Assembly: GCA_031414595.1 (NCBI GenBank)
Contig: JANNVX010000010.1
Location: 1 to 21,829 of the forward strand
Reading direction: 5' to 3'
DNA: 21,829 bases
Origin: Deinococcales bacterium
GTDB lineage: Bacteria > Deinococcota > Deinococci > Deinococcales > JAAFIG01
This document shows positions 648-21,500 of this stretch, one piece after another; positions within the stretch are counted from its first letter, which is position 1, and each line of letters starts with the position of its first letter. Made by a program: the position numbers and the translations under genes. Under the pieces are notes generated by a model. The model worked only from the letters and a program-made list of their open reading frames with translations. It did not search any database and was not told the origin of the DNA.

Positions 648-713
648 ATGGCTAAGAAAAAGTTTAAGTCTCGAGTAATCGCATTTATCAGCCTTAAAGA
701 TGGTGTTGATTGA
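648..713 (+). pseudogene. ParA/Soj/MinD-family ATPase N-terminal relic
   Basis: ATG648 gives MAKKKFKSRVIAFISLKDGVD*, a degenerate form of (K/R)VIAF.SLKGGVGKTT, the deviant Walker A lead-in. Confidence 0.55.
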
Positions 714-826
714 CTGCCCACTGGGTCTTGAACTTCGTGGCATAATTGGCAGATAGTATTGTGTCATGTGCGTCCAACCGATGATGCTAACCGCGCCCGA
801 TTCACGCTCGAGGAATACAGACAAGT

Positions 827-1510
827 ATGGCAAAAATCACCCTCGAGTTTTTAAGACAACACATTCAAAGCATTGCAAGCGTGTATAACAAGCAGCTTTT
901 AGAACTAGAAGACTTGGCGTACATTACAGAGGATGTCCAAGTCGTTCGTATTCAGCGTGAGCAACTGCTGCACCAAATGCGGCTCGAGCAATTTGAACCG
1001 TTAAGGGTTAAGCATCCTGTCCATATTGCTTGGTTTACGATTGATGAATTATCCACGAATTTGACTGGGCGGATTCAGAACGCCATTGAAGTATTGCGCT
1101 TGCTTTTACCGCAACCTCGAGAACAGGCTGGCTTCTACCTTGAAATGCTGCACCGTCCTGAAATGTTTTGTGAGTACAGATTTATAAAGCCTAATTTTTC
1201 GGAAATATACCTTCGTGGTGACGCACCAACCAGCGTTATTCTGCATGAACTTGGACACTGGCTTGAGGCTTCGATACCAGGCACAGAAAAAGCAGCTACT
1301 GCCCATGTTGACGCTCGAGTTCAAAACGAAATACCGCGACACCTCGGACTTGGCTACCACGTCCTTGAGTACACACAACCAGACGGCTCGAGGGTGTACA
1401 CTGAACTCATCAGCACAGGCTTGGAATACCTGTACCAAAACCCGATGCAGTTGATTGAACAAGACCCACAAACCACTCTTTTTCTTGTCGAGTTAATGGA
1501 GTCCATATGA
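827..1510 (+). CDS. zincin-like metallopeptidase (HExxH), resembling metallopeptidase domains of phage MuF/polymorphic toxins
   Basis: 227-aa ORF with VILHELGHWLE and a downstream TELISTGLEYLY..P..L...DP motif supplying a candidate third Zn ligand (Glu). No signal peptide evident. Confidence 0.7.
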   Translation: MAKITLEFLRQHIQSIASVYNKQLLELEDLAYITEDVQVVRIQREQLLHQMRLEQFEPLRVKHPVHIAWFTIDELSTNLTGRIQNAIEVLRLLLPQPREQAGFYLEMLHRPEMFCEYRFIKPNFSEIYLRGDAPTSVILHELGHWLEASIPGTEKAATAHVDARVQNEIPRHLGLGYHVLEYTQPDGSRVYTELISTGLEYLYQNPMQLIEQDPQTTLFLVELMESI

Positions 1511-1818
1511 CCCTCTCTAGTACCAACACCAAACAAACCCAACGCAACCAAAAACGCCCCAAAGGTGGGATTAAAACCCTCGAGCAACTGACCGCTCTTG
1601 AGTACCAAGGCAATCGAGCCGAGTTAAAGCATGGGGTTTGGTACTCGAGCGACCAAGCCTTTGCCCAGCGATTGACCGAGTTAAGTTTGATGATTGCTTA
1701 CAGTGCAGCAGACCCACACCCAGATGCAACCATTGCCCGAACAATTGCTGCACGACTTGGGGCGCGGTTAGTACAGATTGGGGCTGCTCCTAAGCGTTCG
1801 CCTGATGCAATGTATTAA
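1507..1818 (+). CDS. small hypothetical protein coupled to the metallopeptidase (candidate immunity or substrate partner)
   Basis: ATGA overlap at 1507-1510. 103 aa with YSAADPHPDA and a C-terminal P..P..Y*. Confidence 0.7.
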   Translation: MTLSSTNTKQTQRNQKRPKGGIKTLEQLTALEYQGNRAELKHGVWYSSDQAFAQRLTELSLMIAYSAADPHPDATIARTIAARLGARLVQIGAAPKRSPDAMY

Positions 1819-1896
1819 GCTATCTATCAATATATTTTGTGATTTTAAGAGATGGCTAATGCGATTTAGCCGCACACCTGTTCTAAAATCCAAAGT

Positions 1897-4800
1897 CTAC
1901 CCCACCAGTTGCCGCAGCAAAATCGGGTCTTGAATTTCAGAATCCTTTGCCAGCATCAGCACCTTGGCAATCACCTCAGCCGTGTGCGGGTCGGCATCGG
2001 CAAACGGCAAGAAAATCCGTCCTCGAGCCTGATTCGGCACTGCCACCAAACAAATCGCGCCACCCGGTTGCTGATGCACCACTGCACTGCCTAGATGCAC
2101 GCTATACCGTCCAATTTGCCCTTCAATCAGCGCCACCGATTTCTCGAGACGCACATTGCTGATTTTCAAAAGTCTTAACGTCTCGAGCAACAACGCCGCC
2201 CGCATTTCGGTGGTGCTTTGCGAGGCTTCTGGGTCTACGCCGCCAACGTGCGCCACCGAGACCACCAAGTCAAGGTCGCGCATGATTTCGGAATACAAAC
2301 GCTTGGGGATATTCTCGAGGGTCAACGCTTCCCATTCGCCGCGTTTGGTAAAATGCACCGTGTCCAAGGCTGGTGCTTCGACTTCGGCTGGGGTTGTCCA
2401 ACCTTGCTTGCTGCGGACATGAGCCGTGATGCCTTCGGCAAAAAAGGTGCGGCTGGCATCGCCTTCGTAAGCATTGACCACCCAGCCCCTCGAACCAAGC
2501 AGGGCAGCGCTTTGGCGTTGGTTAATCTGATGCCCAGCGTAGCGCTCAGACTGGGTTTTCTCGAGTTTTTCGACTTCGGTTAGCAAATAAAGTTCCCTAA
2601 AAATTTGCTTAAAAGGCTGTTGGCGTTTGGCACTAAAAAATGCGGCTTGGAATTCGCTCCAGTGTCCGGACTCGAGTAAATCTATCGGGTGCGCCAAGCG
2701 TAAACTCGAGCCTTGAATGGTCAGCAATTCGCCGTTTGGACTGACCAAATTTTTACCGTCGGCAGCTAAAAAGCCCATTTGGGTTTGGTCAATAAACACC
2801 ATTTGCTCGAGCATCGGTTTGACGATTGGGTGCTTGGTCAGGTCGCGCAGTTCTTTAGCCGTAAATTCGTCGCCATGAACCATGGCGCGTTCCAAAGAAA
2901 CCCGCATTCGGCTGCGTTGGGTCTCGAGTTCTTTGCGTCTGGCTCGGATTTCAATCACGGCTTCGTCTTTTTTGAGGTTGGCTGGAATGTCTTTGAGGGT
3001 TTTGCCGGCTTTTTGTACCTCGAGCATCGGTTCGCCATCTGGCGTGACCGACAAAATCAGTTCAACATCGCCTTTTTGTAGCTTGACAGCGCCTTTGGAT
3101 AAATCTGCCACGGCTCTCAGTTCCATTGCCCACTCGAGCCGCATTGGGTCTGGGTAGCCAGCCGTGCGGGCTAAATTCTCGAGTCCAATCCGCGAAGCAA
3201 GGCGTTCGGATTCTTTGCGCTGCGAACCAAATTGCTTGGATTGTTTTAAGAAGGTCTGGATGACCTCATAACGCGCCAGCAGTGGTGCGTCTTTACTCTT
3301 GGGGAGTGGCAGCAGCCCAAGGGCGCGAAGGCTGTCTTGGTGGCGTTTACTGGTAATCCGCGTCACCACTTCGGATTCGACCAGTTTTCCAACCATCGCA
3401 TCGGCAAATTGCTTGGCTCTGGCATGACCCGTTCCAGAGGTGATGTACTTGGCGGCATCGTAGAGTTGTGTCCAGCGCTTTGTGCCAAGGTCTTTGTAAA
3501 CCCCACTAAACCAAGCCACATCGACTGCGCCGTCGATTAAATCCTGAGTGGTCAGTGGGGTCAGTTGCGCCATCTCGAGTTTCCAACTTTCTTCTTCGTT
3601 TTCGGTGTTAAAACCGCCATCTTTGGTGTGCGCCCGCAACCAATACATCCCTTCAGACAAGCCTTTCCAGCCGATGGTTTTCGCCACAAATTGTGTCCAT
3701 TGTGGTGCAAACAATCCAAGTTCGAGCAGGCGTTGTTCGGGAATATCGGCTTTTTGAATGGCGCTCGAGAATTCTGCTTGGGTGTCGGTCGGGCTTGGAT
3801 ACACAGCTTTTAGGAGGTTGGAAAAAACCACCAAACGCGGTGCTTTATCCCCGTAATAATAACCAGCCCCACGCGAAATGTTGTCATTTTTAATCACACT
3901 GAGAATCTGCACCAAACGCGGTAAGCCAGTCAAAAATTGGATGCTCGAGGCTGCACCTGTGGCGGGGGTGGGTAAATCGCCTCGAGCCAATTCGATTTCC
4001 AGCACCCGATTGGTGCATTGCTCGAGCAAGGGTTGTAGTTGCGGGTAGGCTTTAAGCAGCTCAGTCGGCTTTTTTCGCAGATACTCGGTAAACCCATGGT
4101 TGCAGGCTACTGTTTTTTCGGGGCGCAGGTGTTCAAGTCCAATCAAGGCTTCCATCACATCGGTTTGATTGGCAATGCCAGCCTGCCAAGCCGCCAATAG
4201 GTTGCCATGATTTATCTTGCGCTGATGATTCCACCACAGCCGCAAGCCCAGACCATGCTCGAGTTGCCAAGACCGAACTTTTTGGGCTGTACTTAAAGGC
4301 TGACTGCTGGTGTCAAGCCGCACAATCACAGGGTTTTGGCGCTTAAATGTTTCATAGGCTTTGTTGCCCTCAAGGGCTTTTTCGTTCGGTAATGATTCGC
4401 CTTTTTGTACAAAAGTAGCAAAGGTTTGCTCGAGAACTGCAACACTTTGTGCCAATTGGTCTTCAAGGACATCCAAGGCAAAATCGTGTTCGTTGGCAGC
4501 CGGGTAGAGTTCGGTCAGCCAAGCCAGAATTCTGACCATGATGCCTTCAAGGGCTTCATCGGCTTCTTTGAGTTTTTTTGGTTTGAGGCTTGAAAAATAG
4601 GTTTTTTTAATTTCCGTGTTGGCATAAAAGGCATCATCTGGGTCTATCTCGAGTTCGTAGTTAAATTCGTCGTCCACATAAAAATCGTCATCGTCCACCT
4701 CGGGCTTAAACATAAACGGACGAATTGCCAATGCCCGCAGAAGCTCAAAACCATCGGCATCGCGTTCCTTGGCGGTTCGATTTTCAAACCAAGTTGTCCA

Positions 4801-6780
4801 AGTTTCAGACAATGGAAAATTTTTCCACTGCTCGAGAATCGTTTTTTCTTTGTCATTTGGATGAGAGGGACGGTAGTACGCATTCTCAAATGGTTTTTGT
4901 TCAATTTCATCGCTCCAGTTTAGATTATCCACCACAGTTAAACGCTGCGACCAAACCAGTTTCTCGAGTTCACCCAAAAGCGCTAAAGCGGCTGGTGTAA
5001 CCAACTCGATTTTTTTGCGTTCAAAGCCAAAAGCTGGGGTGCGTAGCTTGGGGTCAAACAAACCAAAGCCGTCGGTTGGGCTGGGTGCGTTCTGCTCGAG
5101 CCGCAGACGCTCGAGTGCCTGTTCGATTTCTGCGCCAGCTTTTTTTTGTTCGGGGGTTTTGGCTGCTTTTAAGCGCGAAGCACTGGCACTGGCAAATTCG
5201 GCGGGTTGAGCCAAAATAAGTTCAATCGTGCTTTGTCGCACCGAAGCAGTTTTGCGACTGAGTTGCTTCTCGAGCGGGGCAAATTCGGTCTCCTCGAGTA
5301 AGACCTTACTTTTGCCCATCACCTCAAAGGCTTTTTCGCGCAAATAATTGTCTTTGTGGGTCAGTGCCTCAATCACAATTTCTCGAGTTTCGGCTGCCCA
5401 CGGTGTTTGTTTGGTTAAGACTTCGATTAACTGACGTAAGGTATAAGGCTCGAGCAAATGCTTATAGGGCAGAATCAAAGTCACTTGCGTTTCATCAAGT
5501 AAGTTGTACATCTCGGAGGCAATTCGGCTTGGCTCGAGGGCAATATCTGGTAGCCAACTTTCGGGCGCAGCCAGCTTAATCGGGTTTGGAAAGCGTTTTA
5601 AGAACTTCTCGAGCATACCAAAACTGCTTTCTCGAGCCGCCAAATTTTCGGTTGGCAAGCTCGCAATCTGCTGGGCTTTGAGCGCCACCAAATCTTCGGG
5701 GTCGGTCAGCATGGTTTGAATGTTGGCATCATCGGCTGCCTGCAAAAATGCCAAAGTGTGCAACGCCAAAAATCGGTACTTGGCATCTTTGTGCTTCAGC
5801 CAAGGCAGTGCTAACGCTTGAGCTTCCTCGAGATTTTCAAAGGCTAAACTGAGCAGCACCAAATATAAATCCTGTAAAGCTGGCGCACCTTTTAAGTCTT
5901 TAGCCACAGTATGGTTGGCTTTTTGGTTCTCGAGCCGACCAATAAATTCTTTTAGCGATTTCTCGAGGATTTTTGGAGTCGGTTCGTCTGGCAAAAGCGG
6001 CAAAAAATCTTTCGCCCATTGGACACTCGAGGAAAAGCGCAGCAAATCCGAGTCGAGTATCCATTTCAGCATCCGCAACAAAGCCAGAGGGTGGGCATTT
6101 TGGATTTCGGCAAAAATACTCTGACGCAGCCCTTCTTGGCGTTGGGCTGCCAACAAGGTTTTTTCAATGATTTCCCAGCCCTCAACACGGTTGGCTCGGA
6201 GCAACGACCCAATCACGGTATTGCCCATCATCGCCACAGGATGCTCATTTTTGGCGGCTGCCAGCATGACATTAAACACTGGCGTGTTGCCCAAATCTAT
6301 ATCGGCAACAAATAAATCGGTCAGGTAATGTCCAAAAGTCCAATCGTAGGCGGCGTACTCCGCAAACCACTCGAGTGGCTGGTCGTAATTTTTGGTTTTT
6401 TCGAGCCATTCCTGACAAGTATCAATTTGTTCTTGCAAAGGGGCGGCTTGATGGCTTTGGAAACCACTTGAATTTTTTTGTGGTTTTTGTATGGCTGCCC
6501 TAACAACTTGGCTAAAGCGCACAAACCAAACCTCGAGAACGTCTGCAAAATCTTTTTCCGAGATGCCATAAAAAACCTGTTGCGCCGCTTCATGAAATTG
6601 ATTGCGTTTCTCCCAATCACCCAACTCGAGTTCTTTACCGTTTACATCCAGCAGCAAAAAATCCAGGGTTTTCTTGGCTAGGTCTTTGGGCAACCGACCA
6701 ATCCGTTGCGCCAGCAATTGGTCGGCATTTTTAAGCACGGCGGTTTCGATGATTTTTTGGGCATCTTCGCGTTTTAACAT
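1897..6780 (-). CDS. large DUF4132/DUF5724-type protein (MolR/YehI-like), about 1627 aa
   Basis: Motifs include AAQRQEGLRQSI, SKQFGSQRKESE, LENLARTAGYPDP.RL.WAME, the DUF4132 block (LERAMVHG...HPI...RLAHP..L...QPFKQIFRELY...RYAG) and YSEIMRDLDLVVSVAHVGGVDPEAS. Start moved from 6804 to ATG 6780 because GGAGG lies just upstream of it. Confidence 0.85.
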   Translation of the reverse strand: MLKREDAQKIIETAVLKNADQLLAQRIGRLPKDLAKKTLDFLLLDVNGKELELGDWEKRNQFHEAAQQVFYGISEKDFADVLEVWFVRFSQVVRAAIQKPQKNSSGFQSHQAAPLQEQIDTCQEWLEKTKNYDQPLEWFAEYAAYDWTFGHYLTDLFVADIDLGNTPVFNVMLAAAKNEHPVAMMGNTVIGSLLRANRVEGWEIIEKTLLAAQRQEGLRQSIFAEIQNAHPLALLRMLKWILDSDLLRFSSSVQWAKDFLPLLPDEPTPKILEKSLKEFIGRLENQKANHTVAKDLKGAPALQDLYLVLLSLAFENLEEAQALALPWLKHKDAKYRFLALHTLAFLQAADDANIQTMLTDPEDLVALKAQQIASLPTENLAARESSFGMLEKFLKRFPNPIKLAAPESWLPDIALEPSRIASEMYNLLDETQVTLILPYKHLLEPYTLRQLIEVLTKQTPWAAETREIVIEALTHKDNYLREKAFEVMGKSKVLLEETEFAPLEKQLSRKTASVRQSTIELILAQPAEFASASASRLKAAKTPEQKKAGAEIEQALERLRLEQNAPSPTDGFGLFDPKLRTPAFGFERKKIELVTPAALALLGELEKLVWSQRLTVVDNLNWSDEIEQKPFENAYYRPSHPNDKEKTILEQWKNFPLSETWTTWFENRTAKERDADGFELLRALAIRPFMFKPEVDDDDFYVDDEFNYELEIDPDDAFYANTEIKKTYFSSLKPKKLKEADEALEGIMVRILAWLTELYPAANEHDFALDVLEDQLAQSVAVLEQTFATFVQKGESLPNEKALEGNKAYETFKRQNPVIVRLDTSSQPLSTAQKVRSWQLEHGLGLRLWWNHQRKINHGNLLAAWQAGIANQTDVMEALIGLEHLRPEKTVACNHGFTEYLRKKPTELLKAYPQLQPLLEQCTNRVLEIELARGDLPTPATGAASSIQFLTGLPRLVQILSVIKNDNISRGAGYYYGDKAPRLVVFSNLLKAVYPSPTDTQAEFSSAIQKADIPEQRLLELGLFAPQWTQFVAKTIGWKGLSEGMYWLRAHTKDGGFNTENEEESWKLEMAQLTPLTTQDLIDGAVDVAWFSGVYKDLGTKRWTQLYDAAKYITSGTGHARAKQFADAMVGKLVESEVVTRITSKRHQDSLRALGLLPLPKSKDAPLLARYEVIQTFLKQSKQFGSQRKESERLASRIGLENLARTAGYPDPMRLEWAMELRAVADLSKGAVKLQKGDVELILSVTPDGEPMLEVQKAGKTLKDIPANLKKDEAVIEIRARRKELETQRSRMRVSLERAMVHGDEFTAKELRDLTKHPIVKPMLEQMVFIDQTQMGFLAADGKNLVSPNGELLTIQGSSLRLAHPIDLLESGHWSEFQAAFFSAKRQQPFKQIFRELYLLTEVEKLEKTQSERYAGHQINQRQSAALLGSRGWVVNAYEGDASRTFFAEGITAHVRSKQGWTTPAEVEAPALDTVHFTKRGEWEALTLENIPKRLYSEIMRDLDLVVSVAHVGGVDPEASQSTTEMRAALLLETLRLLKISNVRLEKSVALIEGQIGRYSVHLGSAVVHQQPGGAICLVAVPNQARGRIFLPFADADPHTAEVIAKVLMLAKDSEIQDPILLRQLVG

Positions 6781-6781
6781 T

Positions 6782-7222
6782 TTAGCCTCCCGCCAGCGCC
6801 ACAAGGCGCAGGAACATCAGTTCTTGGTTTAACTCGAGGTCGAGTGTATCTGATAGGCGCTCAATTTGATTTTCGCCATAAAAAGCGTAGTACAAACCAT
6901 CCTGAAAGGCTTGAATAGCAGTTTCGATGGCTTGGTCGGTGTCTATTTCTTGCTTAAATTCTTGTCCACCCAGACTGATTTTGCCGCTTTCAGCAGCCTC
7001 GAGCAACTGGTTTTCGGTCAGTACCCGTAAAAACTGATTATCGGTTTGGCGTGTTCTAAAAGCATCAACCTCGAGGGTCACAATTCGCTCGAGTAATTGG
7101 CGCAAGGTTGGCTGGCTCGAGAAATTACCAAGGTTGTAGTCGCGGGTTGTCAGGGCTTTTTTGCGCCCGAGTTGCTTAACCGAAAGCCTCAGATTAAAAG
7201 TCGTACCAATAGATAAGTCCAT
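6782..7222 (-). CDS. small protein with a ubiquitin-like (ThiS/MoaD-type) C-terminus ending LAGG, co-transcribed with the DUF4132 gene
   Basis: Ends DGLYYAFYGENQIERLSDTLDLELNQELMFLRLVALAGG*. The stop is 1 nt before the next ATG. ATG 7222 is preferred over 7228 because it lies 6 nt after a TAGACT -10 box. Confidence 0.75.
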   Translation of the reverse strand: MDLSIGTTFNLRLSVKQLGRKKALTTRDYNLGNFSSQPTLRQLLERIVTLEVDAFRTRQTDNQFLRVLTENQLLEAAESGKISLGGQEFKQEIDTDQAIETAIQAFQDGLYYAFYGENQIERLSDTLDLELNQELMFLRLVALAGG

Positions 7223-7228
7223 GCTCAT

Positions 7229-7234
7229 AGTCTA
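7229..7234 (-). promoter_or_regulatory. -10 element (TAGACT) of a probable leaderless transcript
   Basis: TAGACT-N6-ATG(7222), with no Shine-Dalgarno sequence upstream. Confidence 0.5.
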
Positions 7235-7291
7235 GTTTCTTTAGGTGAGTTGGCGCTGTAAGCAGTCTGAAAAAAAACCAACCATGAGTTC

Positions 7292-8872: not shown

Positions 8873-8874
8873 AG

Positions 8875-8908: not shown

Positions 8909-8923
8909 ACCTTTTTACCGACC

Positions 8924-11097: not shown

Positions 11098-11268
11098 ATG
11101 ACACCCTCGACCCCATTAAAACCTAGTAAAAAACAAACCGCCTCTAAATTCCTACTCGAGTTTGCCGCCAGCATACCTAAAGACGTACCAGAATCTGAAC
11201 TCGAGAAACTACCTAGCGACGGCGCAGTGAATCATGACCATTACCTGTATGGAGCGCCAAAAAGATAA
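11098..11268 (+). CDS. small VapB-like antitoxin (56 aa)
   Basis: MTPSTPLKPSKKQTASKFLLEFAASIPKDVPESELEKLPSDGAVNHDHYLYGAPKR*. The LP.DGA..HDHYLYG.PK tail is typical of small proteins preceding PIN toxins. TAATG overlap with a PIN-like start. Below the ORF-track length cut-off. Confidence 0.8.
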   Translation: MTPSTPLKPSKKQTASKFLLEFAASIPKDVPESELEKLPSDGAVNHDHYLYGAPKR

Positions 11269-11336
11269 TGCGTTCCGTATTTTTAGATGCTGTGTATTTA
11301 ATCGCCCTGATAAACCCAAACGACCAGTACCACTAA
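11268..11336 (+). pseudogene. vapC: truncated VapC/PIN-domain toxin (first 22 codons only)
   Basis: MRSVFLDAVYLIALINPNDQYH* matches the PIN N-terminus (FLDT..hIAL....D.YH..A). No further PIN sequence is recognisable downstream. Confidence 0.75.
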
Positions 11337-13078
11337 ATGCGAAACCGAACCTACCAATAATAAATACACTCCGTATGATAGATAATTCCGCCAATTCATG
11401 GCTACTTGTAGAGAATCTTGGACAGCAAAATCAACCTCACCATTATCGCTGGGTTAGTCCATTTGAACCAAATGAGCAGTTAAATCCAATAGCTCTTGCG
11501 TCTAAATTGACTAACTCAAACAATTCTACGATCTCAAACGGTTTCTCAGGGCTTTTTCAGAGTGGAATGGATGATATTGCTGGATTCGTATTAACTCTAG
11601 TCGGAAACTTTCTTAACTCAGCTTTCTTTTTTAGTCCATTTCGGCGCGGCAAAGAAAAATCACCTAGTCAGTCTGACGTAATACTAAATACAGATGGAAA
11701 TAACCTACCAGCACGACTATTTACCGCAGTATTAAACGAAAAACAAGAATTCCATAGAATAGAAAAATTTGCACAAGAGGCTCTTTCTAACATCGGGGAC
11801 TTAAATCCTCGAGTCATTGGTAGCGAAACGCATATCGAATTTGAACAAGATGTCATGGGTAAACCGCTTTCAACTCGTTTACACGCAATGGGTGGCGGCG
11901 TTGAACAACTTCTGATGGTTGCTGCAGCACTAGAGACGACTTCTGTAGATGCTCCACTTTTTCTTGAAGAACCAGAGTCTCATTTGCATCCAGGCGCACA
12001 ACGCTACTTACTCGAGAAATTGGTAGAAAGCGGACGACAGGTTTTCATCACAACCCATTCAAGCGTTTTTCTGGGTGATTTAGCCAATCAGAACCGTACC
12101 AGTATTTACCGTGTTTCACAAAGTAACCGCCGTACCAGTATTGCCCGAGTAGATGGAGCAGCACTTTCTACAGCACTTCAAGAGCTTGGTGTTATCAATT
12201 CGGACTTGCTACTGCGTGAAGGTTTGGTTTTTGTTGAAAATGATTATGACGGACAAGCATTAAGTGCTTTAGCCAAGACTTTAGATAAGCCTTTAACAAA
12301 TCGCAATATTGCATTTGTTCCAATAGGTGGCGCAACAGCATTAAATACAATTGCCCCAAGTAGTAGCACCGCGCTTGAGCGTTTGCATCAAGGAGCATTA
12401 GCTATTCCGCACTTATTTTTGATAGACCGTGATGAAAGAAGCGAAGCCGACCTAGAAAAGCTAAAACGCAACGCAAATATTCAGGATACCCTACACGTTT
12501 TTGAACGACGAGAATTAGAAAATTATTTACTTGTTCCATCCGCTCTCAACCGCTACGTTAAAGCCTATAAACCATGTAACGACGTAACAGTCCAAACTCG
12601 ACGCGAGGCAACAAATGCGGTAGAAATTGAAGGGCTTATTCAGGCTGCTCGAGATAACCTAAAATCAAAAACGTTAGCAAAACGGATTGCATCTGCTTTA
12701 TCTCGTGACCATCGAGTTTTTATTCTTGACAGAGAAGATATTTCAGGACTCGAGCATATACTATCAAACGAAAATTATGCAGAACAAGTGAAAACATTTA
12801 TTGAGAAGCAACTCCTGATTCAAGCAAAATTGGATAGAATTCCAGCTTTAGTAGAAGAAGAGCATTTCAAATTTGAGAATGATTGGTCAGATGAACTACA
12901 ACGCAAAAATATCGCTCCTGGTGAAGAAATTATTTGTGCAGTATTAAAGCATTTCTCAATTGGGACTAAAAATATAAAAGCTGAAGTACCAAAAATCGCT
13001 GCTTTTCTCAAGCCTAATGAAATTGCACAAGAATTAAAAGACCTGATACTGCGGATTTATGACCTACCAAAACGCTAA
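11337..13078 (+). pseudogene. OLD-family ATP-dependent nuclease (ABC-type ATPase plus TOPRIM), N-terminally truncated and lacking Walker A
   Basis: ABC signature-like MGGGVEQLL, Walker B/D-loop LFLEEPESHLHPGAQ, H-loop FITTHS, TOPRIM VFVENDYD and IDRDER, and RRELENYLL. There is no GxNxxGKS/T in the ORF. The track start at 11234 overlaps the antitoxin and vapC. First internal ATG is at 11375. Confidence 0.7.
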
Positions 13079-13235: not shown

Positions 13236-13239
13236 TCAA

Positions 13240-13836: not shown

Positions 13837-13853
13837 ACTCAAAACGATACGCC

Positions 13854-14976: not shown

Positions 14977-14977
14977 A

Positions 14978-14998
14978 TGGTACTACATTTTGGTATCA
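14978..14998. promoter_or_regulatory. inverted repeat, candidate HicB autorepression operator
   Basis: TGGTACTA-N5-TGGTATCA (6 of 8 positions pair) fills the gap between the purA stop and the hicA start. Confidence 0.55.
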
Positions 14999-16210
14999 AG
15001 TCCAACTGACGTGTCCAAAAGTCTCGGCTCGAGATTGTCCGGTACCAAAAATAACCACTGGGCAATTCACCAATTCTTCGATTCGGGCGATATATTTAAG
15101 AACCGCTTTTGGCAGGTCTTCACGGCGCTCAATCCCGTCTAAATGCCCCCAACCGTCCATTTCCTCGAGTATGGCATTGCCGTTTTCATCGTGTTCAATG
15201 CCAAGTTTGATTTTGTCAAAACCACTTAAGAAATCGAGTTTGGTCAGGGCAATCCCATCAAAACCGTTGACATCTACCGCGTACTTGACCAATTTAGTAT
15301 CAAACCAGCCCATACGTCTTGGTCTACCCGTGGTCGTGCCGTATTCTGCACCCGGCGCGTCGCGTTCGCCACGCAACCGATGCTCGAGTTCGCCAAAAAC
15401 CTCGGTGGGAAATGGTCCATGTCCGACCCTTGAGGTAAAGGCTTTGGCAACCCCAAAAACCTTGTTGATGTGCTTATGGTTCACTCCTGTACCAACCAGA
15501 ATTCCGCCGACTGTCGGGTGGCTCGAGGTCACAAATGGGTATGTGCCGTAATTCAGGTCTAGCAAGGTGGCTTGAGCGCCTTCAAATAACACATTCTGAT
15601 TTTGACTTAGGGCTTGGCGCAGCATCGAACCAGTGTCTTTAATAAATGGTGTAAGGATGTCTCGAGCCTCGAGCATGTGCGGCATGGCGGCTTCAACGTT
15701 CTTCCAGCCGACTTCGGCAGTGCTGTTCGGCTTGGCTTCGATTAGGCGCTCGAGGCGCTCATGTAAAATGCTGTCAGACAATAAATCCCCAGCGCGTATA
15801 CCGATGCGCCGAGCGCGGTCAGCGTACGCGGGTCCGATGCCGCGTCCGGTTGTGCCGACAAAATCGTTTTTGCCATCCACATGTTTATGGTGCGGCAGTA
15901 CCAGATGGGCGCGGTCGGAAACATAGACTTCTGGGTTTAACCCGTGATTTTTTAGGTACGCCAGTTCTTCCTTAAATTTGAATGGGTCTATGACAAGTCC
16001 GTCACCAAGGACAATTTTGACACCCGGCCTAACCGCGCCGGCTGGGAACAGATTTAGCTTAAAAACCACATCTGGCAAAACAATCGTGTGTCCAGCATTC
16101 GCGCCTCCAGAATAACGCACCACAAAATCTGCGTCTGGTGCTAAGAAATCCGTGACTTTTCCTTTTCCTTCATCGCCCCATTGAGCGCCGATGATTGCAA
16201 TTCCTGGCAT
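14996..16210 (-). CDS. purA: adenylosuccinate synthetase
   Basis: GAQWGDEGKGK, GGANAGHT, GTTGRGIGPAYAD, FEGAQ, GTYPFVTSS, EYGTTTGRPRR and TKLD. GAGGAG RBS upstream. Confidence 0.98.
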   Translation of the reverse strand: MPGIAIIGAQWGDEGKGKVTDFLAPDADFVVRYSGGANAGHTIVLPDVVFKLNLFPAGAVRPGVKIVLGDGLVIDPFKFKEELAYLKNHGLNPEVYVSDRAHLVLPHHKHVDGKNDFVGTTGRGIGPAYADRARRIGIRAGDLLSDSILHERLERLIEAKPNSTAEVGWKNVEAAMPHMLEARDILTPFIKDTGSMLRQALSQNQNVLFEGAQATLLDLNYGTYPFVTSSHPTVGGILVGTGVNHKHINKVFGVAKAFTSRVGHGPFPTEVFGELEHRLRGERDAPGAEYGTTTGRPRRMGWFDTKLVKYAVDVNGFDGIALTKLDFLSGFDKIKLGIEHDENGNAILEEMDGWGHLDGIERREDLPKAVLKYIARIEELVNCPVVIFGTGQSRAETFGHVSWT

Positions 16211-16229
16211 ATTGACTCCTCAAAATCAT

Positions 16230-16263
16230 AAAAAAACGGCGCTAAGCACCGTGGGGTAGTGTA
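16230..16263 (-). promoter_or_regulatory. purA leader: -10 box followed by a hairpin and U-tract
   Basis: Minus strand TACACT-ACCCC-ACGGTGC-TTA-GCGCCGT-TTTTTT, followed by the RBS. Confidence 0.5.
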
Positions 16264-16361
16264 CCCTAAATCGGTTCGTGATTTTCAATCTATTGACTGG
16301 TTTCAAAAACACTTTGCAACAGATAGTAGCTTGGTTCTACAGTTTTGCTTGAGGTGCAAAA

Positions 16362-16799
16362 ATGAATCGAAGAACTGCCTTAAAAGCCGTGGCTGTGGGC
16401 GGGGCAGCTTTGCTGCTCGAGTCAGCCAAAACCCAAAACTTAGTGGCTTACCGAATTGCAGATGTGGCTTTTTTTGAGCCTGATGGTGCAATTGCCCAAT
16501 TCCCTTTTGATGGTCGTCATGGGTTGGTGGTTCGCGTCCCCCAAGCTCAACCCAACCGCAGCTTAAAACTCGAGCAGAAAAATCAGACCATTTATCTGGT
16601 TGCCTATCACTTGGTTTGTACCCATTTGGGTTGCACACCAGCCTTACCTAATGCCGATGGTCACTTGGTTTGTCCATGTCATCTCTCAAAGTTTTTTGCC
16701 CATAACGGACAAGTGGCGGATTCTCGTCCAAATCCGCCACTCAAAGCCATTGCCCTCGAGCAGCGTGGCACAGCTATTTTTGCGATTGGCTACCTTTAA
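16362..16799 (+). CDS. Tat-exported Rieske [2Fe-2S] protein
   Basis: Twin-arginine signal MNRRTALK, Rieske boxes CTHLGC and CPCHLSKF, and a GAGGTG RBS. Confidence 0.9.
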   Translation: MNRRTALKAVAVGGAALLLESAKTQNLVAYRIADVAFFEPDGAIAQFPFDGRHGLVVRVPQAQPNRSLKLEQKNQTIYLVAYHLVCTHLGCTPALPNADGHLVCPCHLSKFFAHNGQVADSRPNPPLKAIALEQRGTAIFAIGYL

Positions 16800-16823
16800 C
16801 GATTTGGGCTTTCAGTCATTGCT

Positions 16824-17600
16824 TCAACGATGCGCCAAAAGCCATAGCTCGAGGTCTTGTAGTGGCTTTTGGTTAATTGGTGCAAATTGCGAGTTGCTGG
16901 CACTACCTAAACCATGTCCGAGTTGTGGGTAGTAAATAACTTTGGCATCCTTATGGTTTTTCAAGGCATTTTCTAAACGCCCTGTTTGGTCTGGGGTTGT
17001 AATGTCGTCACTCGAGCCTTGTTGGATTAAAATAGGTAAACCCAATTTAGGCATGGCAGGGAGCGTCTCGTAATCTGTACCTTGTACCACCACGGGCGGT
17101 GATTGCAAGATGATACCGCCAAGTGTTGGTTCTTGTAGTGCGACTTGAACCGCTACGGCTGCACCTTCGCTCCAACCCAAGACAAACAGCTTGCTCGAGT
17201 CAACAATTTTGTTCTGGCGCAAGGCATTTAGCACTGCTCGAGCATCGGCAATAAAGTCGGTGCGTGAAAGTTGGGAGTAGCGCCTCGAGTCTATCTCGGT
17301 GGCACTGGTTACATATCGTTTGTTATAACGTGCCACCGCAAACCCTTGGCTGCTGAGGTACTTGGCAATATCCAAAAAATTCTTTGAAACCACTTCGCCG
17401 TTGTTGATAAAAGTGCCATCCATATCCGATGGAAAACCAGCGTGGATTAAAAGTACGGTGGCTAAAAGTCTTTGGCTCGAGTACATCAATTGAGCTTGGG
17501 ACTTAAAATCACCGAGTTGCACCATAAAATCTTGGGTTGTCGAAGTCTGTGCCAGTCCTAATCCAAGCGCCGCACAAAGCACAATCAAGAAGTATTTCAT
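16824..17600 (-). CDS. secreted alpha/beta-fold hydrolase
   Basis: Signal peptide (GLGLA/QT), nucleophile elbow GWSEG, acid motif QGSSDD and His motif YPQLGHGL. Confidence 0.85.
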   Translation of the reverse strand: MKYFLIVLCAALGLGLAQTSTTQDFMVQLGDFKSQAQLMYSSQRLLATVLLIHAGFPSDMDGTFINNGEVVSKNFLDIAKYLSSQGFAVARYNKRYVTSATEIDSRRYSQLSRTDFIADARAVLNALRQNKIVDSSKLFVLGWSEGAAVAVQVALQEPTLGGIILQSPPVVVQGTDYETLPAMPKLGLPILIQQGSSDDITTPDQTGRLENALKNHKDAKVIYYPQLGHGLGSASNSQFAPINQKPLQDLELWLLAHR

Positions 17601-18139
17601 TATTTTCTCCGCAGGTAAAGCGCATTAAAATTAACGCGCCAAGTTTTGCCGTTGTCACTCGAGATTTCGCCCAGTTGACGAACTTTATCAGGGTCATTAT
17701 TTATAATATTCCAAGTGATGCGTTGCAGTGGTTCGCTACTTGGGCTTGCACGCATAAAGCGGTCTGACTCGAGAACCATTGCGCCGTTGTTAAATGTGCC
17801 ACTTAAGGTCAGTGCGCCTTGTCCGTTGTTATCCACATAGATTTGATACCACTGTTTGGCTTTGGGGTCGTAATAATTTTGGCTGATGGCGCGTCCACCG
17901 GGCGCATCGGTATTATCTTGCCAATTTTCTTCTATCATGCAGCCATTGAGTAAGTTCTGAACAGTGTTGCGTCCAACACGGCGCTGAGAGGGTGCGTCCA
18001 AAACATCCCAATCGCCAACCCAAAAATCAAATTGACGGTATTCGGGGGCGCTGCATTGTCCTTGCCCATCGGCTTTTGTGCTTAAACCACTGGTCAGCAG
18101 TGTGCCTATCAGTAACCAAACAACTCGGGTTTTTAACAT
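17600..18139 (-). CDS. secreted hypothetical protein (FDFWVGDWDV family, beta-barrel-like)
   Basis: Signal peptide, C.APEYRQFDFWVGDWDV, GCMIEENW and SSDNGKTW. AAGGAG RBS, and TAATG coupling to the hydrolase gene. Confidence 0.8.
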   Translation of the reverse strand: MLKTRVVWLLIGTLLTSGLSTKADGQGQCSAPEYRQFDFWVGDWDVLDAPSQRRVGRNTVQNLLNGCMIEENWQDNTDAPGGRAISQNYYDPKAKQWYQIYVDNNGQGALTLSGTFNNGAMVLESDRFMRASPSSEPLQRITWNIINNDPDKVRQLGEISSDNGKTWRVNFNALYLRRK

Positions 18140-18186
18140 GATTTACTCCTTTTATTTTGTCACAGTTTAGGGCTAAACTCCTTTCA

Positions 18187-18885
18187 ATGACAGCCGAATT
18201 TGAAAATAGCCCGTGGTTTGAAGTGCAGAATAACCAGCAAGCCCAATTGCTGCATTCTGCGACTGATTTTCGGTTTTTTCGCCCATTTTTTACTCGAGAA
18301 AACACGGTTTCCCAAGCGGCTAAAATTATCGGGGTCAGTGTGCTGAAAATGTACCGCAAGGTACAGCAACTAGAATTGGCGGGCTTGTTGGTACAGACTC
18401 GGTTAGAGGCTCGGGCGGGTAAAGCCATCAAGTATTACCAGTCGGTGGCGGATCGTTTTTTTGTGCCGAATCGTTTACTCAGTGCCGAGAATTTTGAAGC
18501 ACTGCTCCTCGAAGAAGATGATGTTTGGCGGCGCAGATTACTGAGAGGCATGGCTCAGGTTTCTAAGGATGCGATGCAGCACCAAGGAATGTATATTTTT
18601 CGTGAATCCCAAGGCAGAATTCGCAGAATCAACGATGAAGAAACTGGTATGAACGCACTGCCTGAGAATATGGAAATGGGCAGTTCTAGCCCTGCGGTCT
18701 GGTCGGATTGGTCTTTGGTGCGGCTCGAGGCAGACGAAGCCAAAGCCCTACATGATGAAATGCGGGCTTTATTTAACAAGTATTACAACAAACCTAGTGC
18801 CAAACGGCGTGGACGTTTTCATGTTATTCGCACCGCCATTGCTCCAATGTCGGATGAGGACGCACTGGTATTTATAGCGCGTTAA
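18187..18885 (+). CDS. winged helix-turn-helix (ArsR-like) transcriptional regulator, Deinococcus type
   Basis: PFFTRENTVSQAAKIIGVS..KMYRKVQQLELAGLL and RAGKAIKYY.SVADRFFVP. ATG 18187 lies 7 nt after TAAACT (18174-79). Divergent from two secreted-protein genes. Confidence 0.8.
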   Translation: MTAEFENSPWFEVQNNQQAQLLHSATDFRFFRPFFTRENTVSQAAKIIGVSVLKMYRKVQQLELAGLLVQTRLEARAGKAIKYYQSVADRFFVPNRLLSAENFEALLLEEDDVWRRRLLRGMAQVSKDAMQHQGMYIFRESQGRIRRINDEETGMNALPENMEMGSSSPAVWSDWSLVRLEADEAKALHDEMRALFNKYYNKPSAKRRGRFHVIRTAIAPMSDEDALVFIAR

Positions 18886-21098
18886 TGCTCTAAACTCAGT
18901 TTTGGCATGACTTTGGCAAGGCGTTTTGGCAGCCACCAGTTCCATTCACCTGCCAGCATCATCACGGCTGGAACAAGTACCAGACGAACCAGTGTGGCAT
19001 CAAGGAACACCGCCACCGCTAAGCCCAATCCGATGGTTTTATTGGCGACCACATCACCCGAGACAAACGCACCAAAGACTATCAGCATAATTAGCGCCGC
19101 ACTGGTAATCACACCAGCCGTACTCTGCACCGCGCTTTTGACTGCATCGTGGGTGTTCATGCCAGACAAATGTGCTTCTTGAACCCTCGAGAGTAGAAAA
19201 ATTTCATAATCCATACTCAGTCCAAAAGTCACGGCAAACATCACAAGCGGTAGGCTCGAGTCTATAGCACCAATGTCGGTTGGGATATTAAAGAAATCTG
19301 CCATAAATCCATTTTGAAAAATCAGGGTAATGATGCCGTAACTGGCAGCCACAGTCAAAGAATTCATGATGATGCTTTTAATCGGAATGACAATGCTTCT
19401 AAAAGCAATAGCGAGTAAAATAAAAGTAGCGATAAAGACAGCAATAATTGCAATCGGCATGGCGCTGACCAGCGCATTGGTGAATTCTTGGCTGCCGACG
19501 GGCGCACCACCAAGCAGCACTTTGTCAAATCCAGCGTTTTTTGCTGCCCCACGAAGTTTTACAAGCCAAGCAGGGATTTCAGAAGGATGCACGGCATCTT
19601 TTGGAATCACCGAAATGCGTAAGTATTTGCGGTCTTTGGAGATGCTGCGCTCGGTCAGGTTGGTCAGGGTCGCAAGGCTATTGCCGTCAGTGTCAGTCGA
19701 AAAATCGGCTCGAGAAGTCAGGAACGGCGAAATCACCAAACGGGCTTCGTCCCATGAGGCGATTTCTGCGTCTAAGGCACGCCATTTGCTGCGGTCTTGC
19801 CTAAAATCACTGGTCTCGAGAATGATTTCAAATTGGTCTAAACTGCCGCCAAGTTCAAGCGGGCGGATAAGTTCGAGTCCTTTGCGAGATTCGACATTTG
19901 AAGAAAGCCCAAACGCCCCCGTGTAGCCAAGTTTCATATTCAGGGCTGGACTGGCAATTAAGAGAATAAAAGCCACCACCCCAATCACCCAAGGTATCGG
20001 GCGCTGCATGACTTTTTCGGCAACATTTGCCCAGAAAAAACTGCCTTTGCCGCTCGAGGTGGTTTTGAATTGCAATTTGCGTGGGCTGTTGACCCGATCA
20101 CCGATTAAAGCCAGTAAAGCGGGGACAGCCGTGGTACTGACCAGCACAGTCATGAGAACCACCAGCACCCCAGCAATACCCATGCTGCGAACAAAGGTCA
20201 GGTTAGGAATTAAGAGTGCAGCCATCGCAATTGCCACAGTCAAGCCGCTAAAGCCCACGGCGCGTCCGGCGGTGCGGGTGGTATTGGCGGCGGCAACTCG
20301 AGGGCTGTGTCCTTTGGTCAGTTCTTCACGGAAACGATTGACCATTAAAAGCGCGTAATCTATGCCAGCCCCCAAACCAAGCATGGTCACGACTGCCGAA
20401 GCAAAACTCGAGACCTCAATCAGTTGGGTCACACCATAAACGGCTGCCATGGTTAGCGTTATCGAAACCACACCCACCGCAATTGGAATTCCAGCCGCCA
20501 CCAGTGCGCCAAAGGCAAAAACCAGAACAATCGCAATTAAAGGCAATGCCGCAAGTTCGCTATTTTTGGTGTCCTCCTCGGATTTTTCCAAAAAATCTTT
20601 GGTGATTGAGCTTGCACCCGTCACAAAAACCTTGGTCTCGGGTAAACCAGCCTCGAGTGCCGTTTGGCGAATGGCGTTAATCACAGGGTTTGGTTCGGTC
20701 AGGCGGGTGCTGAGGACGGTGGCACGTATCAGCTTGCCATTTACTTCGCCCGTCAGTTTTAAGGGGCTGCTGGCATCAAATCGGGTGACGCTATTAACCC
20801 CTTCTATCGCCTCGAGCTTCGCCACAAAGGTTTTGTATTTTTCTAGGAATACGGTCTTATTGGCTGCCAATTCGCTTTCGGTGACCACCAGTGTGGTGTC
20901 CACGCGCTCGAGCTTAAATTCATTTTCGATGATTTTATTGACTCGTTCGGCTTCGCTGCCTGGTAGCGCACTGGCATTACCAACTAGGTTCTTAGAAGTT
21001 AAAGAAGCTGGAAAGGCGCAGAGTAAAAGAATAACTGCCCAGAATCCAAGTATCCAAGCGGGACGGGTGGCGACCAAATCAGCTATTTTTTTGAACAT
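18882..21098 (-). CDS. MMPL family (RND superfamily) transporter, YdfJ-like
   Basis: GLGAGIDYALLMVNRFREEL, TAGRAVGFSG, FGLSMDYEIFLLSRVQE and LDATLVRLVLVPA. Two MMPL repeats. Confidence 0.93.
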   Translation of the reverse strand: MFKKIADLVATRPAWILGFWAVILLLCAFPASLTSKNLVGNASALPGSEAERVNKIIENEFKLERVDTTLVVTESELAANKTVFLEKYKTFVAKLEAIEGVNSVTRFDASSPLKLTGEVNGKLIRATVLSTRLTEPNPVINAIRQTALEAGLPETKVFVTGASSITKDFLEKSEEDTKNSELAALPLIAIVLVFAFGALVAAGIPIAVGVVSITLTMAAVYGVTQLIEVSSFASAVVTMLGLGAGIDYALLMVNRFREELTKGHSPRVAAANTTRTAGRAVGFSGLTVAIAMAALLIPNLTFVRSMGIAGVLVVLMTVLVSTTAVPALLALIGDRVNSPRKLQFKTTSSGKGSFFWANVAEKVMQRPIPWVIGVVAFILLIASPALNMKLGYTGAFGLSSNVESRKGLELIRPLELGGSLDQFEIILETSDFRQDRSKWRALDAEIASWDEARLVISPFLTSRADFSTDTDGNSLATLTNLTERSISKDRKYLRISVIPKDAVHPSEIPAWLVKLRGAAKNAGFDKVLLGGAPVGSQEFTNALVSAMPIAIIAVFIATFILLAIAFRSIVIPIKSIIMNSLTVAASYGIITLIFQNGFMADFFNIPTDIGAIDSSLPLVMFAVTFGLSMDYEIFLLSRVQEAHLSGMNTHDAVKSAVQSTAGVITSAALIMLIVFGAFVSGDVVANKTIGLGLAVAVFLDATLVRLVLVPAVMMLAGEWNWWLPKRLAKVMPKLSLEH

Positions 21099-21150
21099 GA
21101 TTTTTCCTTACAAGAATTGAATAGGGGATTTTTAGTGTTTTCTATCTTTC

Positions 21151-21177
21151 GTAGGGGCAGACCCCCGTGTCTGCCCT
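21151..21177 (+). repeat. GTAG-type REP-like palindrome
   Basis: GTAG-GGGCAGAC-CCCCGT-GTCTGCCC: a GTAG foot with a perfect 8-bp stem. Single copy in the window. Confidence 0.7.
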
Positions 21178-21359
21178 GTAGGAAGACATTCTTTCGAGGA
21201 TTTACCAGACTACCCTGTATGTAGAGTCTAACGCCTTATGGCAAGGCATCCGCCCTCGATTGACAATAGTTTGCACTATAAATCACAAGCTGTCTAGGTA
21301 CAAACGCTTGTTTGTAGCAATTCAACTAAAGGACTGTACCGCCCAAAAGATTCACTGCC

Positions 21360-21500
21360 CTAGGGCTTAGTCGTACCCGCCAAGCCAAAAACAAATTCGG
21401 AATACTCGAGGTCTGGCGCGAGTTTGTTAAGCACTTGCAAAGCGCACGAAATAACTTCTGGACTAACACCATCACCAAGAAGAACACCAACTTTTGGCAT
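21360..21500 (-). pseudogene. leuB: 3-isopropylmalate dehydrogenase (beta-decarboxylating dehydrogenase family) N-terminal relic
   Basis: GAAAGG RBS, then MPKVGVLLGDGVSPEVISCALQVLNKLAPDLEYSEFVFGLAGTTKP*. This is a degenerate LPGDGIGPEV...A..VL motif that stops after 46 codons. Confidence 0.65.

Follow-up and report, generated by a model that had tools for sequence, protein, structure and literature searches.

CTCGAG is a highly iterated palindrome in a low-GC, uncultured Deinococcota family

Why should a single palindromic hexamer, CTCGAG, recur several times per kilobase and in nearly every gene of a bacterial genome? The question is raised by a 21,829-base contig of an uncultured member of the Deinococcales (JANNVX010000010.1 of assembly GCA_031414595.1; contig C10 of the source genome, G000), which in its whole length is called the window below. 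It carries exactly 124 CTCGAG sites within positions 670..21410 (unstranded; the first at 670-675, the last at 21405-21410), or 5.7 per kb, which reproduces the number and the coordinates of a manual count of about 124 made in a first-pass annotation of the same letters. The roughly 5 copies expected according to that annotation are correct as a flat 1/4096 figure; shuffling the window with its dinucleotides preserved gives a lower expectation (mean 2.65, maximum 7), and 124 was reached in 0 of 100 shuffles. Sorted by frame, 63 sites are CTC-GAG, that is, Leu-Glu codon pairs, 23 are nCT-CGA-G, 28 are nnC-TCG-AGn and the remaining 10 lie outside open reading frames (ORFs), as expected from the claim that the motif occurs in all three frames and between genes. 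At least one site is present in 17 of the 18 ORFs of the window, the exception being a 5'-open ORF at 2-628 with a G+C content (GC) of 0.34, and in 3,697 of 3,885 ORFs (95.2%) genome-wide, which bears out the description of the motif as written into almost every gene.

Abundance and unit of the word

The enrichment extends to the rest of the genome at the same density. In the source assembly (4,488,778 bases in 120 contigs, GC 47.2%, 94% complete, 0.5% contaminated) we counted 23,235 CTCGAG sites, one per 193 bp, making it the commonest of the 4,096 hexamers by a factor of three, with an observed/expected ratio (O/E) of 23.9, 43.6 and 18.1 under Markov models of order 0, 1 and 2; the letters of this one word make up about 3% of the genome. 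Genes were taken as the longest non-overlapping ORFs of at least 100 codons (n=3,885, covering 88.8% of the genome). Site density is 5.15 per kb inside these ORFs and 5.37 per kb outside them, and it is flat along genes (4.96-5.70 per kb by decile).

We found that neither codon usage nor the encoded proteins account for this abundance. The ORFs hold 20,601 sites, 12,245 in frame as CTC-GAG and 4,038 and 4,318 in the other two frames, whereas shuffling synonymous codons within genes, which keeps both protein and codon usage, leaves only 1,950-2,037 (1,323, 397 and 273 in the respective frames) and shuffling codon order leaves about 940. The enrichment thus persists under a shuffle that preserves amino acids and codons, and a codon-pair effect is refuted. 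The effect on proteins is large, in agreement with the suggestion at first pass that the process is strong enough to shape protein sequences: Leu-Glu is the most over-represented dipeptide (20,432 observed versus 9,195 expected), compared to only 8,977 for Glu-Leu, and 60% of Leu-Glu pairs are spelled CTCGAG, although CTC accounts for only 15.5% of Leu codons and GAG for 33% of Glu codons.

A library artefact was a further concern. Independently built Logan contigs reproduce positions 1000-20999 of the window with 0 differences, as one 21,320-base contig in run X1 and as 8 contigs in run X3, either of which may be the source sample, and short contigs of run X5, from a second study, match the window with 0-1 differences. 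The sequence therefore stands up to this check at the level of contigs, which is the level of the comparison, rather than of raw reads.

The unit of the motif is the bare hexamer, as the variable flanks had suggested at first pass. Each flanking position out to ±15 carries at most 0.045 bit, without a consensus, and the single strong flank effect is a four-fold depletion of CCTCGAGG. A longer motif or a mobile element was rejected on the strength of these uninformative flanks, and a split half-site motif was rejected as well, spaced half-sites being at background level (338-1,007 copies of CTC(N)kGAG for each k from 1 to 12, versus 23,235 at k = 0). The TCGA core occurs 33,474 times in the source genome, 23,235 of them within CTCGAG, and is not enriched outside the word; CTC and GAG outside CTCGAG stand at half their expected frequency.

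Words that differ from CTCGAG by one base receive no comparable excess. In 493 kb of non-coding DNA, O/E is 29.7 for CTCGAG, 1.47 on average for its transition neighbours, 0.50 for its transversion neighbours and 0.79 for words two bases off; all 12 transversion neighbours are depleted (0.28-0.71), and the six transition neighbours range from 1.09 to 1.81. Over the whole genome the six transition neighbours are alike (950-1,368 copies, O/E 1.06-1.26), with none specially depleted. Because one-off words get no credit, the pattern points to recognition of the kind shown by restriction or modification enzymes, not by a typical DNA-binding protein.

Gaps between sites are near-geometric (mean 191, median 138, coefficient of variation (CV) 0.99), and on this CV a spacing ruler was rejected. 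The departures from a geometric distribution are a deficit of gaps below 20 bp (0.53 of expectation in the 10-20 bp class) and a shortage of gaps of 600-1,000 bp (0.67-0.78 of expectation). A spacing of 6 is absent from the source genome (0 cases) because it would create GAGCTC, itself an avoided word. Hairpin pairs were considered and rejected: spacings of 10-14 occur 29-54 times each, and none of them stands out in the way that spacing 7 does with its 101 copies.

These results place the enrichment in the DNA itself rather than in codons, peptides or a mobile element, and they extend the behaviour proposed at first pass by analogy with the highly iterated palindrome (HIP) of cyanobacteria, HIP1 (GCGATCGC): CTCGAG is abundant genome-wide, in all frames and in spacers, has the hexamer as its unit and changes proteins. 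An account that invokes no special process, attributing the sites to codon pairs or composition, a mobile element, or an assembly or linker artefact, could point to CTC-GAG being the commonest frame (12,245 of 20,601) and to a genus, g9 below, in which CTCGAG is about as frequent as GAGCTC, as codon usage alone would give. We give it next to no credence in view of a non-coding density equal to the coding one, counts in the other two frames 10- to 15-fold above the synonymous shuffle, random flanks, contigs of two studies that reproduce the sequence and, as described below, sites at orthologous positions in seven other species and a trait common to all genomes of the family.

Distribution, conservation and turnover

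The RNA polymerase beta subunit (RpoB) of the source genome is colinear with five beta chains of 1118-1119 residues, 1iw7_C, 1ynj_C, 1hqm_C, 1l9u_C and 1i6v_C, which we take to be Thermus enzymes, at 1,679-1,695 bits compared to 1,218 for the next match. This pattern fits the Deinococcota placement of the first pass; the assembly contains no 16S gene. When purA of the window was scanned against a contig collection, only relatives from other phyla were returned, at 46% identity or less.

All 18 genomes of the same family, which span five genera and are metagenome-type assemblies throughout, carry 4.3-6.8 CTCGAG per kb, most of them with near-zero GAGCTC. The enrichment had been ascribed to this lineage, a scope that proved too narrow: over 301 genomes of the phylum the density is graded, and a second deep lineage is equally extreme. 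The largest genus, g7 (100 genomes), has 0.01-0.25 sites per kb, and in g9 (31 genomes) the density of about 0.9 per kb matches the GAGCTC control. Densities in family f2 span 0.3-2.8 per kb, and those in genera g13-g15 span 1.4-3.5 per kb with a GAGCTC control of 0.07-0.9. At the upper end, G253 (7.0 per kb) and G310 of genus g36 are as extreme as the source family, and g36 is no closer to that family, by purA and RpoB identity, than other families are. We therefore caution against two generalisations, in that not all relatives are enriched and the trait is not confined to the uncultured family.

The gradient is also seen when composition and codon usage are accounted for. O/E relative to composition and the ratio of observed sites to a synonymous shuffle are, respectively, 4.9 and 1.8 in G019 (GC 0.58), 7.4 and 3.2 in G030 (GC 0.63), 9.6 and 3.5 in G196 (GC 0.66; 3.3 sites per kb), 24.0 and 9.8 in G005 (GC 0.48), and 26.8 and 9.0 in G253 (GC 0.49). 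With purA as the gauge of distance, G019, G030, G253 and G196 are 57-64% identical to the source genome. In samples of 35-80 kb from five genomes, CTCGAG was the top palindromic hexamer in all five.

The sharpest contrast lies within genus g36. G197, a congener of G253 and G310 whose RpoB is 85-86% identical to theirs, has only 0.3 sites per kb despite an equally low GC (0.57 at third codon positions of rpoB), and where G253 and G310 have sites in rpoB it has one-off forms such as CTCGAA and TTCGAG. Low GC is thus not sufficient for the trait, which can be lost or gained within a genus. The G197 genome (2.3 Mb in 5 contigs, 95% complete) appears reduced; GAGCTC is not avoided in it (384 copies), and no purA match was obtained.

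As a side observation, one IMG/VR viral record (G316; 14,155 bases, about 60% GC) holds 73 evenly spread CTCGAG sites (5.2 per kb) versus 29 GAGCTC and may come from a phage or prophage whose host is enriched. Among the matches listed, viral contigs were mostly high-GC and rich in CTCGAG and GAGCTC alike, and of the loci followed up only G316 was evenly rich in CTCGAG.

To follow individual sites we compared the window with seven congeners by alignment (72-93% identity). Sites were conserved more often than control hexamers in every one of them: 52 of 59 in G005 (controls 0.69), 37 of 41 in G001 (0.60), 13 of 15 in G004 (0.50), 68 of 89 in G003 (0.29), 41 of 51 in G007 (0.26), 39 of 54 in G006 (0.22) and 14 of 24 in G002 (0.14). 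Conservation thus ranged from 0.58 to 0.90 for sites versus 0.14-0.70 for controls, with few intergenic sites among those aligned. The effect reaches synonymous bases. Against G003, G007 and G006, where the amino acid is the same, the third base of CTC in the motif is kept in 79-88% of cases, compared to 22-40% for other CTN Leu codons and 47-53% for other four-fold codons, and GAG is kept in 88-92% of cases within the motif versus 24-50% outside it. CTCGAG sites outlast their surroundings, synonymous bases included.

Sites nevertheless turn over. An alignment of 66.7 kb with G005 (92.9% identity) has 324 sites in common, and each genome has 36 that the other lacks, so that gains equal losses. 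Among the 72 differences, 46 involve a single base, spread over the six positions as 9/4/10/7/7/9, and transitions account for 41 of these 46; single-base substitution, mostly by transitions, creates and destroys sites at all six positions. Insertion plays no part in this spread, consistent with the position of most rpoB sites in ungapped alignment columns and in keeping with a HIP; the purA matches likewise span query residues 1-403/404. Concerted recoding of several bases at once (e.g. CTCGAG versus TTCTAA, both Leu-Glu) was considered as well and rejected, as 26 of the 72 sites differ at two or more bases compared to 27% of controls, which is not significant.

DNA that has not been resident for long, or that is multi-copy, carries few or no CTCGAG. 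Repeats with at least 4 copies in the source genome (1,561 bp) hold 0 sites versus about 8 expected. By gene GC, O/E is about 22-24 from GC 0.40 upwards and about 7-11 at GC 0.35 or below, and in a low-GC polysaccharide cluster a core of 4.3 kb is devoid of sites. The 20 site-poorest long genes include an RHS/PT-HINT polymorphic toxin gene on contig C14 (10,941 bases, 3,646 aa, only 20 sites), a type I restriction subunit gene, defence-like genes, and genes for an S-layer protein, secreted proteases and surface proteins.

What could maintain the word

The data argue against a repair process acting on deamination at a single position and against a spacing ruler; what remains is an uptake or recombination signal, a nucleoid mark, or some other methylation-linked process. 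Each would have to produce a bias of a certain strength. If only the intact word is favoured, its enrichment at equilibrium would be e^S, where S is the scaled bias. For the source genome we obtained, by arithmetic, 3.2-3.4 for ln(O/E), a ratio of sites to transition neighbours of 17-24 and a synonymous rate ratio of 0.2-0.5, from which we infer a weak but pervasive fixation bias for the intact site, with S about 3 (range about 2-3.4) in this genome and about 1.6-2.3 in less enriched lineages. Slight shifts in the strength of this bias or in effective population size would give the whole gradient, which a two-fold change would span. Selection and a restoring drive predict the same values of S equally well. 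Whatever reads the word would presumably be a protein with all-or-none specificity of the grade of a restriction or modification enzyme.

Direct selection would act if each site served a chromosomal function, for example the binding of a nucleoid-organising protein. The paper by Xu, Lawrence and Durand argues for selection and a chromosomal function of HIP1 from conservation and from a periodicity of 10-90 kb (PMC5861425), and CTCGAG offers parallels: its sites are likewise kept inside and outside genes and at synonymous bases, its density is near-equal in every context, and gaps of 600-1,000 bp are in short supply. However, conservation cannot tell selection from a restoring drive, the spacing, analysed at short range within the 120 contigs, is near-random and follows no ruler, and ordinary DNA-binding proteins tolerate near-sites, whereas one-off variants go uncredited here. 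Two large genera and one congener also dispense with the word. We regard direct selection as an unlikely explanation.

A second possibility is biased repair linked to methylation, as in the HIP model of Elhai (2015), in which a methyltransferase marks a word, here CTCGAG or its TCGA core, and a mismatch or short-patch repair activity resolves mismatches in near-sites toward that methylatable word, so that sites ratchet up. In the passages at hand the model covers HIP1 and alternate HIPs, each with a cognate methyltransferase (PMC4390886), and passages of a 2026 preprint list CTCGAG among methylated motifs in hot-spring genomes and phages (10.64898/2026.06.24.734251), the taxon of its 'Group 2' being unstated there. 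The all-or-none specificity for the hexamer resembles that of a modification enzyme, and the source genome has about 25-30 methyltransferase-like genes (among them 5 C5, 8-9 N4/N6, about 10 N6 and 1 D12) in addition to many restriction and defence genes. The non-enriched G197, furthermore, has 0 matches in PF00145, PF01555, PF02384 and PF07669.

A search for the enzyme that such a mechanism would share among lineages gave a different picture. No methyltransferase in PF00145, PF01555, PF02384, PF07669 or PF02086 is common to the hyper-abundant genomes compared (G000, G006, G013, G011, G009 and G253), so that the link to a methyltransferase carried over from HIP1 at first pass found no counterpart in these five families; specificity is unreadable from sequence, different enzymes or an unrecognised family may share it and the assemblies are incomplete, which limits this negative. 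In G013, whose single 5.1-Mb contig carries 4.6 sites per kb, the only C5 enzyme shares no more than 35.5% identity with any of the five C5 enzymes of the source genome; there is no PF01555 match, and besides there are two type I HsdM proteins, a 693-aa N6 enzyme in common with G011 only, and one protein of 1,111 aa. G006 has only 2 matches each in PF02384 and PF07669, one of them in a type II pair.

Individual candidates for a driver were rejected in turn. The Eco57I-type pair of G006 is absent from the source genome. Members of an HsdM-like cluster (about 500 aa) are type I subunits beside HsdS, HsdR or a YhcG-type nuclease, in contexts that are all different. The TaqI_C-type methyltransferase on contig C4 of the source genome has orthologues in 2 of 30 relatives, G001 and G003 only; the enzyme on C89 is an MmeI-like fragment on a 2.1-kb contig; and the D12 enzymes form three unrelated clusters, none universal. 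A sweep of 59 ORFs of the source genome with a [DNS]PP[YFWH] motif yielded no further methyltransferase candidate.

Repair components fared no better. The short-patch endonuclease Vsr (PF03852) had 0 matches in the source genome (94% complete), with positive controls in 3 of 14 genomes, and MutH was found in 2 of 31 genomes (G000 and G005), in both cases next to a D12 enzyme. For the XhoI endonuclease family PF04555 the source genome had no match, a weak result given that 14 control genomes had none either. Because site differences are even over the six positions, they argue against repair centred on one methylated base, and no neighbour is specially depleted. On this evidence methylation-linked repair, too, seems improbable, though it should be kept in view.

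A third possibility concerns defence. In the source genome palindromes are avoided to an extreme degree: O/E is below 0.05 for about 30 of the 64 hexameric ones (GGGCCC 0 copies, TGCGCA 2, CGATCG 3, GAGCTC 6), the tetramers GGCC and GATC stand at 0.01 and 0.14, and CTCGAG is the one palindrome going the opposite way. Dense and possibly modified CTCGAG might then tell a resident nuclease or exclusion system which DNA is its own. Such restriction pressure, together with the many restriction and defence genes and the viral record with 5.2 sites per kb over 14 kb, would suit a self-mark. No conserved candidate system was found, however, and the multi-copy repeat and acquired islands persist with few or no sites. 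Avoidance and enrichment are also only loosely coupled: the number of palindromes avoided (O/E below 0.1) is 31 of 64 in G005, 20 in G019, 19 in G253, 7 in G196, which nonetheless has 3.3 CTCGAG per kb, and 1 in G030. We consider a defence mark quite improbable.

The reading we tentatively favour, a guess by elimination and by analogy with HIP1 that may well be wrong, is that CTCGAG is a HIP-like self-DNA word maintained through DNA exchange. CTCGAG-bearing DNA would be preferred in the uptake or recombination of DNA from kin, or in conversion between a cell's own chromosome copies, and molecular drive would propagate the word as a 'kin-DNA watermark'. Methylation might be involved, though not by way of one conserved methyltransferase coupled to short-patch repair. 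We favour DNA exchange because the advantage would apply to the whole site, whichever of its bases is altered, and alike in every context; because DNA lacking a homologous donor is spared and a conserved methylase is not needed; and because HIP1 itself is now proposed as a DNA-uptake watermark, following reports of a methylation-dependent increase in transformation, in passages of PMC13756078.

Several points weigh against this reading. The step to DNA exchange is reached by elimination and analogy, and no receptor or other CTCGAG-reading protein was identified among the candidates examined. The competence channel ComEC does not discriminate, since 11 of the 12 genomes tested have it, among them the non-enriched G197, G020 and G022, and the two large non-enriched genera, g7 and g9, are presumably the classic naturally competent members of the phylum. 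A bare 6-mer without flanks is unlike known uptake sequences and discriminates poorly per site. The contrast between G253 and G197, with its 0 matches in four methyltransferase families, fits a methylation link equally well. The depletion of transversion neighbours departs from a simple reversible bias at the level of sites, which predicts neutral neighbours. Finally, the gene calls are crude, the measured conservation comes from one 20-kb window and 67 kb of further alignment, and spacers show only a slight excess of sites in convergent (6.61 per kb) versus divergent (5.01 per kb) orientation.

Neighbouring features, related systems and meaning

Within the window, the richest gene encodes a 1635-aa protein with DUF5724, DUF4132 and DUF7737 domains and HEAT repeats by Pfam (1897..6804, minus strand; 38 sites, 7.7 per kb). 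Congeners have the protein in conserved form, and the gene is the source of most orthologue comparisons with G003, G006 and G007. The adenylosuccinate synthetase gene purA (14996..16210, minus strand, by Pfam) has 7 sites, among them a pair 7 bases apart, CTCGAGNCTCGAG, at 15661..15673 (unstranded, from site coordinates and the spacing analysis); among congeners the site at 15661 falls into two states, in a pattern out of step with overall relatedness. An OLD-like AAA/TOPRIM nuclease gene (11234..13078, plus strand, by Pfam; GC 0.40) has only 4 sites (2.2 per kb) and is an example of a site-poor accessory gene. A HicB antitoxin-like gene, also assigned by Pfam, lies at 14402-14719 on the minus strand.

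Both ends of the contig are free of sites. The first, 1..669 (GC about 0.34), holds an inverted copy, at 30-137, of a repeat of about 110 bases, and the second, 21411..21829, holds a direct copy at about 21688-21800; copies are 98-100% identical, and some 20 more lie mostly at contig ends. The repeat, which contains no CTCGAG, is probably the terminus of an insertion sequence or a miniature inverted-repeat transposable element that broke the assembly. A word of 30-45 bases, seen in the window at about 21147-21194 and about 14149-14178, recurs at 84-100% identity in dozens of places in all genomes of the genus and may be a small dispersed repeat.

Four loci elsewhere in the source genome touch on restriction and defence. 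On contig C4 (28798-31529), between NUDIX and valyl-tRNA synthetase genes, lies a pair resembling a restriction-modification system, consisting of a 663-aa methyltransferase with helix-turn-helix, N6 and TaqI_C parts and a translationally coupled 246-aa ORF. The latter matches no Pfam or NCBIfam family and has 4,005 homologues, at about 70% identity and in unrelated phyla, all unnamed or 'hypothetical'; it looks like an uncharacterised endonuclease family. On contig C1 (26904-28231), a D12-class methyltransferase adjoins a 210-aa ORF of the MutH/Sau3AI family, probably as a GATC restriction system, consistent with the avoidance of GATC. Contig C14 has a defence island at 18000-38127 (Double-GTPase 1 and 2, GASH, SIR2 and TPR) followed by the RHS-repeat/PT-HINT toxin gene, and a 268-aa ORF on contig C18 (13994-14800) matches the retron Ec78 effector HNH endonuclease PtuB at 137.8 bits, below the cut-off of 150.

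Among known systems, CTCGAG most resembles HIP1, which is likewise a short, GC-rich palindrome. HIP1 is over-represented 15- to 300-fold according to the abstract of PMC5861425, compared to 24- to 30-fold for CTCGAG. Both words lie in genes in all frames and in spacers, spread by substitution rather than insertion, are conserved between genomes, and vary in strength over a phylum with exceptional lineages that lack them. They differ in letters, in phylum and in length (6 bases versus 8), and CTCGAG is about five times denser than the roughly 1 per kb given for HIP in a passage of PMC4390886. We found no counterpart here of the conserved DmtA and DmtC, and one-off deviations from CTCGAG are not concentrated at the outer bases. 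Alternate HIPs, in which a different palindrome takes the HIP role in each lineage, suggest that the word itself is arbitrary; in the passages of PMC4390886 they come with word-specific methyltransferases, and none could be tied to CTCGAG.

Uptake sequences, for which a preference in uptake has been demonstrated experimentally, are non-palindromic, 9-12 bases long with an extended consensus, and occur about once per kb. CTCGAG is a palindromic 6-mer with flanks of at most 0.045 bit and without an asymmetric core. The likeness to the DNA uptake sequences (DUS) of Neisseriaceae and the uptake signal sequences (USS) of Pasteurellaceae lies elsewhere, in a genome-wide excess that arises by fixation bias (molecular drive), inside genes, shaping peptides and scarce in acquired DNA, as the abstract of PMC1939737 and general background on such sequences have it. 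For CTCGAG we found this scarcity in acquired DNA and abundance in core DNA, as judged from repeats, low-GC genes and accessory genes.

In E. coli, methylation by Dcm at CCWGG is coupled to very-short-patch repair, by which mismatches in near-sites are repaired to the site, so that a modification site is mildly favoured, a small effect centred on one deaminated base. CTCGAG would resemble this system as a modification site favoured in that way, but no Vsr was found in the source genome, its C5 enzymes are not conserved and the six positions behave alike. XhoI and PaeR7I recognise the same word with the same all-or-none specificity; sites of resident restriction enzymes are, however, normally avoided, like most palindromes of the source genome, and CTCGAG is enriched.

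A search of the full-text literature, with subscription journals and preprint supplements outside its reach, found no report of hyper-abundant CTCGAG or of any HIP in Deinococcota. Two CTCGAG motifs that did appear are, judging from the passages concerned, unrelated: one from honey bee (PMC3903499) and one with 5-methylcytosine at CTCGAG in a Halorubrum (PMC8112702). What is added here is the graded distribution over the phylum, the retention of sites at orthologous positions with balanced turnover, the bias for the perfect hexamer and, in five Pfam families, the lack of a shared methyltransferase among the genomes compared.

CTCGAG is, then, a genuine highly iterated palindrome of the family. 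As a wider and more doubtful generalisation, again by analogy, HIPs may form a class of 'kin-DNA watermarks' that arose at least twice, as GCGATCGC in cyanobacteria and as CTCGAG in Deinococcota, in which a factor with the specificity of a restriction enzyme would bias uptake or recombination, the word would spread under molecular drive to the point of altering codon choice and even proteins, and density would report the strength of the drive (about 1.6 to 3.4).

The practical effect is immediate, since one hexamer making up about 3% of a genome skews its codon usage and dipeptide statistics and distorts k-mer binning as well as methods based on restriction, and some 11,000 extra Leu-Glu pairs indicate that a force acting on DNA can override protein sequence. 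For the biology of HIPs, the gain may be greater. HIP1 has gone unexplained for three decades, in part because it was known from a single phylum, in which methylases, polyploidy and competence are inseparable from cyanobacterial ancestry. An independent case, with a different word about 5 times denser, graded over about 300 genomes and furnished with natural contrasts in the non-enriched congener and the two large genera that lack the trait, opens the rival ideas of methylation-directed repair, uptake drive and nucleoid structure to comparative tests and, where moderately enriched lineages have complete genomes, probably to experimental ones. If the wider generalisation holds, such enriched lineages, probably cultured, would provide a second, independent system for the thirty-year question of HIP1.

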